Below are positions 48,083 through 53,537 of a stretch of DNA of 64,000 bases, piece by piece. Made by a program: the position numbers and the translations under genes. Below the pieces are notes generated by a model. The model had not been told where the DNA came from and did not search any database. It saw nothing but the letters and a program-made list of their open reading frames with translations. The number at the start of each line of letters is the position of its first letter. Within the stretch, counting starts at the first letter, position 1. The DNA is from Trichodelitschia bisporula (Eukaryota): assembly GCA_010356995.1 (NCBI GenBank), contig ML996698.1, positions 555,923 through 619,922 of the forward strand, read 5' to 3'.

Positions 48083-49070
48083 ACCCCCTAGGATGGTCTT
48101 GAGAGGATAGGTGATAGTCAGGTTGGAGGCTCATTGAAACCGGATGCGTGATGTTGGCTGCTGTGGGATTCATACGGAGGGAGTCATGGAGAGACAATAC
48201 TTCAGGCACGGAGTTGGAATGATTCCTGCGATTCTTGCTTCCATTCCTGTGTGCTGCTTCAGTTTCCTTGGTATAGGTTCGGAGAGGCTCCCTGACACCG
48301 AAATGGGAGGGTATCTGGCTTCGGTCGGCGGAGACAACCCGGGGCTTTTCGGACACATGTACAACAACGACGGACTTCTTCTGTAGGCGCGTGTTTGGCA
48401 GTAATGACATTGAGATGCGAATGGATACCGGCACATCTTCATGCGTTCATTTTGCATCACACTCCATGGGCGAGCAGTAAGATAGGTGAAGAAGAGTGCA
48501 TATTCATTGAGCAGTAGATAAGCCGGATACGTTTTGATGCATGGCGACCCGGGTTGGGGAAGCACCATCTGTACCGAGCCGAGCCTTAAAAAAAGGGTGA
48601 CATCCGGATGCATAGATGCATACGTAGTAGTTTTGGACTCCACCAAGCTATTATAGAGAAGTTGCCATTCGATGTTTTTACCTCCGTAGTTCGGAGTATT
48701 CCGGCGAGCCGGAGTTGTTACTTGACTGCATGTTATGATTGCACCTTGAGATTGGCGGGATAGAAAGCGCGTGGGGCGGTGGGCAAGCAGTACCGCAGCA
48801 CGCCGTGCACGCCTTCCATGGGGGTGGTAGAAGGGCAGCCGTGGCAGCGTGGGCAAGCGTGGTCACGGACCCTTGCTGTGTTTTTATTCGCGCGGAGCTG
48901 GGCTGGCGATTCACATCCTTACCGACGACGCAACGCTCCGAAAAACTCCCCTCCCCAAAACCTTCGCTTCGACCAGCGTCTCTTGATTCCACAACAACAG
49001 CCGCCACATTTCACCGCATTTCACCTCATTTCACCATATCCCCAACCCCTTCATTTGCCAGTCGCCCACC

Positions 49071-50418
49071 ATGTCTGTCCCTGCTTTCTCAGATATCGCG
49101 AAGCCCGCGAACGATGTAGGCATTCAATTGTTCCCCCTCGGCCCGCATCCGAGCCGTTAACCGCGCCGCCGTTCACGCTCCGGCCAGACTCTAGCGCGCA
49201 ATTGATACATGTAACTGACGCTTTTCACAGCTCATCAGCAAGGACTTCTACCATGCGACAGCCGGTACTTCATATTTGCGCTCCTCCAAAGGGCTTCTGG
49301 CGCATCATGCTCACTGAGTTGCAGCTATCCTTGAGGTGAAGCTGAAGGCTCCCAATGGCTTGGCCATCACCACAAAGGGCACTTCGCCGCACGAGGGGGA
49401 CATCAGCGGTTCGGTGCGTCTTATCCAGGCCACCCGCGACGTTTGGGGACTTGGCTAACAAAATATAGCTCGAGGCGAAGAAGGTCATCAGCAAGGGTAC
49501 ATATTCCTTCCCTTTTGGCCATCCCTTTGGTACCGTCGCACTCTCAATGCTTCTTTATAAGGCGAAGACGCACTTTGCGGATTTGCAGTTGCTTGCCATT
49601 GACACGCGGATACCATACACTATTCTTAGAACGAGACTAAAATTTCCGTACTTAGGCATAACCGCCACTGAGTCCTGGTCGTCTGCCAATGTGCTCACGA
49701 CCAAGATCGAGCTGGAGGATACCATTGCACAGGGCCTGAAGGCTGAGTTCCTCAGTGTCTTCAACCCGAAGCAGGGGCCCAAGGGCCAGAAGCTCAGCCT
49801 TTACTTCAAGCAGGGTGCCTTCAACACCCGTGCGTTCTTTGACTATGTTCCGTCCACTGGCAACGTCAACGCTGTCGTCGATGGGGTTGTCGCTCACGAG
49901 GGCTTTGTTGTCGGTGGTGAAGCCGGCTACGATGTCCAGAAGGCCGCGCTCACGCGCTACGCTGCCGCTCTCGGATACACGCAGCCGCAGTACAGCGTCG
50001 CAGTTACCGCCACGAACAACCTGAGCGTCTTCGCGGCGTCGTACTACCACAAGGTCAACACTCAGGTCGAGGCTGGCGTCAAGGCCGCCTATGACACCAA
50101 GAGCAGCTCCACGGTTGGCATCGAGATCGCCAGCAAGTACAAGATCGATACTCTGTCGTTCGCCAAGGTTTGTCTGCGCGTCTTTGTGCAGCACTTCCAC
50201 TGACCCCACGAAACAGGCCAAGATCAACGACCGCGGTATCCTTTCCCTGGCGTACAACAGCAAAATCAACTCGGGTCTTACGTTCGGCATTGGCGCGTCT
50301 CTGGACACTCAGAAGCTCAACGAGGCCGGCCACAAGGTTTGTATCCCTTTTCTTTGGTTGAATCCTGGTCACTGACGATGACTTCTAGATTGGTACTAGC
50401 TTCACTTTCGAGGGTTAG
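49071..50418 (+). CDS. POR1: Mitochondrial outer-membrane porin (VDAC)
   Basis: Seven exons: MSVPAFSDIAKPAND|LISKDFYH..APNG..GSLEAK..AGYDVQKAALTRY..YYHKVN..AKINDRGI..LDTQKLNEAGHK|IGTSFTFEG*. Confidence 0.97.
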
Positions 50419-50713
50419 GTATTTTGAAACTGGGGCTGTTGTACCGGTAGTTTAGATTGCGGCGGATGTCATGGCTATGCTAGACCGTCAATGAAAGCAC
50501 GTTTCTTCCTTACCGTGGTTCCTCCCTTGTTCAGCTGCCATCGGGCCTGCCATACTTCATGCCTCAGATATCGTTACCAATGACGATGGCACATATGCGG
50601 GGAACTATGCGCCTAAAGGCCTGATAACCGAGGCTTCAGCAGCCACAGCTTTTGTACAAGAGGAGATGACCGACCACGAGGGTGCAGTTCAAGGTAATGA
50701 TTATATGCCAACG

Positions 50714-51520
50714 TTAACCGTCTCCTCGTTTCTTCGTGTCGGGTTTTGACTTCACGATGACAGGCACCGCTATAACCAACGCCACAACCCCCGTCACTAG
50801 GAAGAAATTGACGATCATACTCCCTCCGACCCTCTCCTCATCCAAGCCGCTCATCCTCCCGCGTTCCGCACGCGTCTCCCGCCACTTTCTGATCGATTCA
50901 TGGGTCCGGAAATGCCCCGCGCGGTCCCAATGCGGTATGAATGGCTCAGGTCCGGGCACCTCCTGGCCGAAACCCATTCCACCTGTGCTACCGGACCCCG
51001 CGGACTCAGCCTTCGTCTGATGCTCCGTTCGCTTCGCACTGTGCGCCCCATACCCCCCGCTTCTGTAGAAACTCGGTGGCGGCCCCTTGAACTGGGTGCG
51101 TCGCCTGCTCAAGCCACTTGCAGGACGGGAGCCCGCCGGACCAGCCGCGTGCGAGCTATGACTGCCAGTCGGGTGAGTGTGCCGGTGATGTACCGGACGA
51201 GTGAATTGGGCGTCATATTTGGCGCGCGCGGCCGGGGAAGACAAGACGTGGTAGGCTTCGCTGATGGCGACAAACTTGGAGGCGCTGGATGGGTTGCCTG
51301 GATTGCGGTCGGGATGGTGGAGCTTAGAGAGGGTATAGAATTGCGACTTTATCTGTGCGGGTGTCGCGTGTGGAGGGACGGAAAGAGTGGCGTAGTGGTC
51401 TGGGGGACTGGCGTCGGCAGAGAGCGCGAGGGTAGGGTGAAAAAAGCGGCATTGAAAGTATGAGGCAGGGTTTCGCTGTGGAAGAGACAGTAGGCAAAGG
51501 GGTCGAAGATGGGGTGTCAT
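50714..51520 (-). CDS. Mitochondrial J-domain protein with a C-terminal TM segment (DNAJC4/DNAJC30-like)
   Basis: Presequence-like MTPHLRPLCLL..RFFHPT, J domain DHYATLSVP..LSKLHHPDRN..ISEAYHVLS, hydrophobic C-terminal helix. Intronless. Confidence 0.88.
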   Translation of the reverse strand: MTPHLRPLCLLSLPQRNPASYFQCRFFHPTLALSADASPPDHYATLSVPPHATPAQIKSQFYTLSKLHHPDRNPGNPSSASKFVAISEAYHVLSSPAARAKYDAQFTRPVHHRHTHPTGSHSSHAAGPAGSRPASGLSRRRTQFKGPPPSFYRSGGYGAHSAKRTEHQTKAESAGSGSTGGMGFGQEVPGPEPFIPHWDRAGHFRTHESIRKWRETRAERGRMSGLDEERVGGSMIVNFFLVTGVVALVIAVPVIVKSKPDTKKRGDG

Positions 51521-51897
51521 GTTGTATTGCCTTGGATATGCTGACGTTTGGGGGGCGGTAAAGAGACCGTAACCGGCGGTATTTACCGGCGGTATGATGC
51601 ACAGGTGCGTTGCTGGACAACAAGTCGCATCTAATAGACTATTACAAACAGTTGGAGCAGCGTGGGAAGGCTGGTTGTGCAATGGAGGTGAGGTAAAGGG
51701 AGAAGGGGTATGGAGCGCTGCGGATCGTACATTGGTTCCCCGAGCTGTGGAAAGCAACGTCATGCTGTCCTTCGGCAAAAAGTTTCCCAGCGCCACCACC
51801 ATCCCCGACGGCGAATCGACCCCCGCCCGCACACCCCCGCCTTCAAAACCAGCGCAGCATCCCAACCCACGCCCCAGCATTGCGCTCAACTGTAACC

Positions 51898-53537
<1,640 letters not shown>

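Follow-up and report, generated by a model that had tools for sequence, protein, structure and literature searches.

The fourth intron of the gene for VDAC, the mitochondrial porin, in Trichodelitschia bisporula probably belongs with the translatable introns that preserve the reading frame, as in PTC7 or exitrons, and has been kept across the filamentous ascomycetes (leotiomyceta); from comparison of orthologous sequences we infer that it is retained, translated and functional. Metabolites pass the mitochondrial outer membrane mainly through VDAC, for which the fungal porin is a classic model; to our knowledge, filamentous fungi are credited with a single porin protein from a single gene. A second isoform is likely, given that in six classes of Pezizomycotina the intron is long, in frame, stop-free, under purifying selection on its translation and equipped with a weak donor. 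If true, few protein-diversifying intron retentions in fungi would be as widely conserved. Neither this intron nor a long fungal VDAC was described in the literature found by full-text searches, and no fungal VDAC retained intron is mentioned in the accessible parts of PMC11050156, PMC10967727 and bioRxiv 10.1101/2021.11.08.467853 (the last on Fusarium isoforms, main article).

The VDAC gene and its splicing in the window

The window is the whole stretch of DNA that was analysed, 64,000 nucleotides long, and its source, T. bisporula, is a Dothideomycete of the order Phaeotrichales (lineage looked up). The best protein match of the gene is P0001, a 'mitochondrial porin-like protein' of 285 residues from the same species, with 98% identity over the aligned part and assigned to PF01459, which is the precomputed family of all matches from the protein search. 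P0001 corresponds to the spliced product; its residues 1-284 align to a yeast VDAC chain of solved structure, 9jvq_A (E 2e-52), as well as to mammalian VDAC1/2. RNA-derived contigs from two runs of one sample in one study, X1 and X2, cover the gene at very high depth and are joined across six GT..AG introns, with lengths of 115, 60, 55, 159, 49 and 52 nt. The features of the gene are the following, in window coordinates, with the evidence in brackets.

49071..50418, + strand: VDAC/mitochondrial porin gene, ATG to TAG in seven exons (RNA-derived contig junctions and protein match)
49116-49230, + strand: intron 1, 115 nt (X1/X2 contigs, sequence-checked)
49265-49324, + strand: intron 2, 60 nt (X1/X2 contigs, sequence-checked)
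49414-49468, + strand: intron 3, 55 nt (X1/X2 contigs, sequence-checked)
49469..49496, + strand: exon 4, 28 nt, encoding LEAKKVISK and the first base of a Gly codon (contig joints, sequence)
49497..49655, + strand: intron 4, 159 nt, of phase 1, which keeps the frame and has no stop; candidate for retention as 53 coded residues (X1/X2 contigs)
49497..49502, + strand: weak donor GTACAT, with A and not G at +5 (sequence)
49636..49641, + strand: branch-like ACTAAA, in which CTA is a Leu codon in the retained frame (sequence)
49656..50167, + strand: exon 5, 512 nt, barrel core, used as the query for relatives (contig joints)
50168-50216, + strand: intron 5, 49 nt (X1/X2 contigs, sequence-checked)
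50337-50388, + strand: intron 6, 52 nt (X1/X2 contigs, sequence-checked)

Intron 4 is a real spliceosomal intron, since the X1/X2 contigs join 49496 to 49656 and thereby skip exactly its 159 nt. The spliced form is the only one found in X1/X2, as contigs, which drop minor variants. Its ends are GT at 49497-49498 and AG at 49654-49655, and it interrupts a Gly codon in phase 1 (AAG G/GT...AG/GC ATA, with slashes at the splice sites). A stop-to-stop frame, 49469-50203, crosses it without a stop, which would add 53 residues to the protein. Its length is 2.9x the median of the five other VDAC introns. A preliminary description of this DNA had placed an in-frame intron of 159 nt here, without a stop and roughly threefold the typical intron length, and had pointed to the weak donor GTACAT and the branch-like ACTAAA; coordinates and length are exact according to the sequence and the X1/X2 junctions, and both splice signals are present as described.

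Some further observations were made at the locus. Intron 1 (49116-49230) is also long for the VDAC gene, and its 115 nt are no multiple of three. A 160-nt contig of depth 2.3 (X3 record 12), from a run labelled as a different organism (organism B), is identical to spliced VDAC exons 1-4 (window 49097-49486); it may have been carried over from another sample or come from a very closely related organism. Downstream of VDAC, a convergent ORF on the - strand (50714-51931) contains a J-domain-like stretch, with an HPD motif in '...LHHPDRNPGNP...'. Finally, a contig of 1638 nt (X1 record 4) covers the VDAC 3' exons and continues for >1 kb beyond 50600, so that either the VDAC 3' UTR is long or two convergent transcripts overlap.

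Frame, substitutions and splice signals in orthologous introns

When the read-through frame is used in a protein search, most relatives match its exon-5 part only, and a minority cover 95-97% of the query, with an insertion at the same site. Such a protein sample is biased because gene callers keep open introns; therefore, DNA was fetched independently of intron 4. A scan of metagenome contigs with the exon-5 alignment (A2) yielded 80 fungal VDAC loci, and intron 4 was located in them by the exon-4 peptide ending at the GGT Gly, sought upstream in all three frames, the acceptor being the AG just before the exon-5 match. After removal of identical sequences, 53 distinct orthologous introns were available, the window included. 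Locus L050, treated separately and counted apart from the 53, has an open intron 4 of 135 nt. Intron 5, the next intron of the same genes, served as control, with 48 distinct sequences.

An exon-4 match was lacking in 13 of the 80 loci. Seven of these (L004, L058, L071, L073, L075, L076 and L080) are short loci that have neither intron 4 nor intron 5 and are thus intron-less genes or spliced cDNA; in two the upstream part is cut off, and four have no intron at the site. In L064, L066, L068 and L079, where the match starts from query residue 12, there is no intron at the orthologous Gly codon and the exon sequence is divergent; these four loci probably belong to another fungal lineage, and they could mark the phylogenetic limit of intron 4.

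The orthologous introns measure 72-207 nt (median 153), and 51 of the 53 are divisible by 3, with 49 stop-free in the retained frame. In the intron 5 control (median 58 nt), 14 of 48 sequences have a length divisible by 3, and none is both in frame and open. Among 27 distinct lengths of intron 4, multiples of three number 25, so the frame has outlived many separate indels; those seen in cleanly aligned close pairs are of 6, 6, 6 and 3 nt. The binomial p is 3e-22, a value in which independence is overstated given that the 53 sequences are related. The exceptions are L001 (136 nt) and L020 (118 nt), which are out of frame, and L047 and L067, which contain stops, L067 also being short (72 nt).

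Substitutions were counted in close pairs, 11 in number and phylogenetically separate from one another, whose nucleotides were aligned irrespective of frame. At codon positions 1/2/3, intron 4 has accumulated 63/57/143 substitutions (chi-square p=3.8e-12) and exon 5 67/40/409, whereas the same position count in intron 5 gives 44/42/37 (p=0.73). Nei-Gojobori dN/dS ratios for the core of intron 4, defined as the intron minus its first two and last eight codons, which carry the splice signals, lie between 0.12 and 0.47 in seven pairs. The dS values resemble those of exon 5, which itself shows ratios of 0-0.04 in the seven pairs. For the pair L056/L070 the ratio is 0.90 in intron 4, from 4 substitutions, and 0.19 in exon 5, and one further pair is without core substitutions. 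Pleosporales-like introns keep the motifs YIFH and QPPG, and the third positions of their codons vary (CAA/CAG, CCT/CCC/CCA/CCG, GGC/GGA/GGG/GGT). Conservation of the peptide is limited to clades; between classes, little is common beyond the residues encoded by splice signals. Judged by these substitution patterns, the intron-4 peptide is under purifying selection, weaker than that acting on the barrel. The dN/dS analysis had been put forward earlier as a check on coding constraint, and its outcome is in favour: dN/dS is below 1 in the seven pairs and in L056/L070. The control intron is devoid of the frame and third-position signature. A motif put forward on the same occasion, 'LL.YKAKT.F..L.LL...RIPYT', was found in no relative, although many annotated or ORF-called fungal porins do carry some insertion at this site.

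G is absent from position +5 of the donor in 41/53 orthologous intron-4 sequences versus 3/48 intron-5 controls of the same genes; the weak donor is therefore a conserved property of intron 4. The CTRAY branch motif keeps a single codon register throughout the orthologues, in which CTA or CTG reads as Leu, and this accounts for the L-T, L-M or L-I shared near the C-terminal end of the translations. The CTAAA variant of the window recurs in nearer relatives as an R-L-[KR] pattern.

Annotations of full-length porins that include a translated intron 4 occur in six classes of Pezizomycotina, where lineages were looked up for four species and the other class assignments come from general knowledge. 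We take these long forms to belong to the Eurotiomycetes (Aspergillus alliaceus, A. rambellii, A. wentii, A. uvarum and, of the Onygenales, Ophidiomyces and Polytolypa), the Leotiomycetes (Pseudogymnoascus, Phlyctema, Clarireedia, Scytalidium), the Lecanoromycetes and allies (Mycoblastus, Piccolia, Pleopsidium, Psora and others), the Geoglossomycetes (Geoglossum, Trichoglossum), the Sordariomycetes (Diatrype, of the Xylariales) and the Dothideomycetes (Venturia, Delitschia, Lophium, Parastagonospora, Neofusicoccum, Phyllosticta, Pseudovirgaria). Annotated porin lengths can disagree within one genus (about 283 versus 320-350 residues) because of the translatable intron 4; in Pseudogymnoascus, one record has 335 residues and others have 283. 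Intron 4 is kept in L042, L044, L050, L077 and the gene of protein P0130, which lack intron 5 or both intron 5 and intron 6. Locus L077, presumably Sordariales-like by its exon sequence, begins inside intron 4, is without introns 5 and 6, and has an in-frame TGA in the partial intron 4.

Among the inspected ORF-called proteins from short contigs, no transcript retaining intron 4 alone was found, as all enter intron 3, 5 or 6; because they also read into these neighbouring introns, such read-through proteins stem from genomic DNA or unspliced RNA. Protein P0124 (343 aa) was called from a 1171-nt contig that resembles a spliced VDAC transcript; its ORF starts ~70 residues upstream of the usual start and continues in frame into the porin. 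The species concerned could have an in-frame start further upstream or a 5' leader that is open.

The predicted long VDAC and alternative readings

According to the proposed mechanism, most transcripts would lose intron 4 (the spliced form being shown for the window) and would encode the canonical 285-residue porin of 19 strands, and the conserved suboptimal donor, without G at +5, would let a fraction of transcripts, possibly in a condition-dependent manner, keep the intron. Because the segment is 3n long and stop-free, a retained mRNA has no premature stop; it would encode a VDAC with an insertion of 24-69 residues (53 here), mostly basic, in the turn between strands beta3 and beta4. Since the peptide is under purifying selection, we infer that the long protein is made and matters; the insertion might add a loop for docking or gating, alter assembly or alter targeting. 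Length in multiples of three, openness, codon periodicity, dN/dS <1 and a weak donor are as expected if the retained form is translated and selected. The long VDAC isoform suggested in the preliminary description is favoured by the coding signature of the orthologous introns (51/53 in frame, 49/53 open, 63/57/143 substitutions by codon position) and by the conserved weak donor, but retention itself was not observed, the contigs showing the spliced form only, and no long protein was seen. That filamentous ascomycetes, from Aspergillus to lichens and Dothideomycetes, possess a second, hitherto unrecognised VDAC isoform produced by regulated retention, with a basic insertion that alters gating, partner binding, assembly or location, is about an even bet; if true, it would constitute a splicing-level switch of mitochondrial outer-membrane permeability.

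The 49 open translations have a mean length of 50.5 residues and a composition of 28% Ser/Thr/Pro and 12% aromatic residues, and their net charge is positive in 45/49 (mean +4.3). AlphaFold2 models of two long forms, P0052 from Lophium (mean pLDDT 63) and P0222 from Aspergillus (mean pLDDT 70), position the insertion between predicted strands 54-62 and 112-120 in the former and the site between predicted strands 55-64 and 130-138 in the latter, the insertion itself having a pLDDT <50 in both. The P0222 model contains two extra strands within the insertion (108-114 and 119-125), drawn as a beta-hairpin, for 21 in total, predicted at low confidence.

The main rival explanation, which we consider unlikely, is error tolerance without any distinct function. 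Slow or imperfect splicing in a very highly expressed gene would leave some intron 4 in place, and selection would keep the intron stop-free and 3n long for one purpose only, that unspliced mRNA yield a harmless full-length protein. Otherwise it would produce N-terminal pieces of the barrel or burden mRNA decay heavily. The fast divergence of the peptide between classes, the low-confidence loop formed by the insertion in the models and the dominance of the spliced form in X1/X2, the sole RNA data examined, all agree with this explanation. It accounts for the open frame but not for the constraint on residues, where dN/dS ratios of 0.12-0.47 and clade motifs maintained through synonymous change point to selection on the amino acids rather than on openness alone. 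Nor does it account for the conserved weak donor or for the persistence of a long intron (median 153 versus 58 nt): selection against errors should lead to a strong donor, to a short intron or to none at all, and intron 4 is kept where its neighbours are gone.

A conserved structured RNA within intron 4, be it a splicing switch, a riboswitch-like sensor or an intronic ncRNA or snoRNA, has very little probability. The preliminary description had drawn by hand a multi-branch structure, all stems of which are found in the sequence at the positions given there.

49528..49615, + strand: outer stems 49528-49538/49605-49615 and 49544-49549/49597-49602, with inner hairpins (sequence; outer stems in the minimum-energy fold)

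The existence of these stems, the unusual length of intron 4 in all relatives and the folding of a core chosen post hoc (49525-49625, z -2.09, 4/200 shuffles) would suit such an RNA. However, the whole intron folds at -29.9 kcal/mol versus -27.5 +/- 3.45 for dinucleotide shuffles (z -0.70, with 45/200 shuffles as good), a second script giving z -0.25, and there is no excess folding energy over dinucleotide shuffles in the 53 orthologous introns (mean z -0.10, median 0.07, 3/53 below -2). The RNAalifold and Infernal/Rfam checks proposed at the outset were run: RNAalifold returned 0 consensus pairs for 15 Pleosporales-like orthologous introns, and an Rfam cmscan of 48900-50600 at E<=10 returned four weak matches, none of them inside 49497-49655. 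The C/D box motifs TGATGA and CTGA were not seen on reading the 159 nt of intron 4. With ordinary folding energies, no consensus pairs and no Rfam family in the intron, both the conserved cis-regulatory or ligand-sensing RNA and the intronic ncRNA or snoRNA are without support and largely rejected; a structured RNA would moreover leave the 3n lengths, the missing stops and the third-position substitutions unexplained.

Less probable still is that intron 4 is an ordinary long intron whose frame is open by coincidence and looks common through gene-caller read-through. Pyrimidine-rich introns do have few stops, the other two forward frames being open in 1/53 and 23/53 and shuffled intron interiors in 15% of cases, which leads one to expect 7.8/51 stop-free introns, and the insertion-bearing protein matches are indeed a biased sample. 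Base composition falls short of explaining the 49 open introns. Chance is rejected, as the 53 introns were gathered through exon 5 regardless of frame, as they exceed the control so widely in divisibility by three and openness, and as their codon periodicity (p 4e-12) is missing from the control intron (0.73). Constraint from an overlapping antisense gene, which could also give 3n indels and periodic substitution, is equally negligible and is rejected, since the antisense frames are open across intron 4 in only 1/53, 2/53 and 5/53 orthologues and no minus-strand ORF spans it in the window.

Comparison with known systems

The closest parallel of a translatable VDAC intron is PTC7, for which intron retention in Saccharomyces and related yeasts was reportedly described by Juneau et al. 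in 2009. In both cases a spliceosomal intron lies in the coding region of a gene for a mitochondrial protein, has a length of 3n and is stop-free across species, and spliced and unspliced mRNAs yield, or in VDAC would yield, two proteins. They differ in that retention, both proteins and their separate locations are shown experimentally for PTC7, whereas the long form of VDAC is deduced from evolution alone. In addition, the retained part is a membrane anchor in PTC7 but would fall in a turn of a beta-barrel channel in VDAC. PMC7491326 judges protein-diversifying intron retention by 3n length, absence of an in-frame stop and conservation (with PTC7 and NUP100/116 in yeasts), and regards retention as appreciable at 10% or more of junction reads. 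According to PMC7491326, several PTC7 introns have consensus splice sites, in contrast to the donor of VDAC intron 4, which is conserved as weak. The phylogenetic span differs too, being Saccharomycotina for PTC7 and Pezizomycotina for VDAC intron 4.

Exitrons are exonic introns of plants and animals that usually lie inside an annotated constitutive exon and whose splicing is a minor event; the word occurs in none of the papers listed when it was searched together with fungal terms. Like them, VDAC intron 4 is internal, coding-like, biased to 3n, stop-free and conserved in the manner of coding sequence, and would be either spliced or kept. Unlike in exitrons, the spliced form of VDAC is the canonical and dominant one, and it matches yeast and mammal VDACs, which are without such a loop.

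Introns that host snoRNAs or other structured RNAs share with VDAC intron 4 an unusual length, a conserved position and a highly expressed gene, but the latter has no Rfam match, C/D motifs or conserved structure, and its constraint bears on the frame. Lastly, animals and plants have VDAC isoforms, encoded by paralogous genes, and mammalian VDAC1 has an alternative first exon. The likeness lies in the presence of more than one VDAC protein per organism, with presumably different roles. In animals and plants, however, the isoforms are separate genes or N-terminal variants, whereas in the filamentous ascomycetes the proposed pair would come from one gene and differ by an internal loop.
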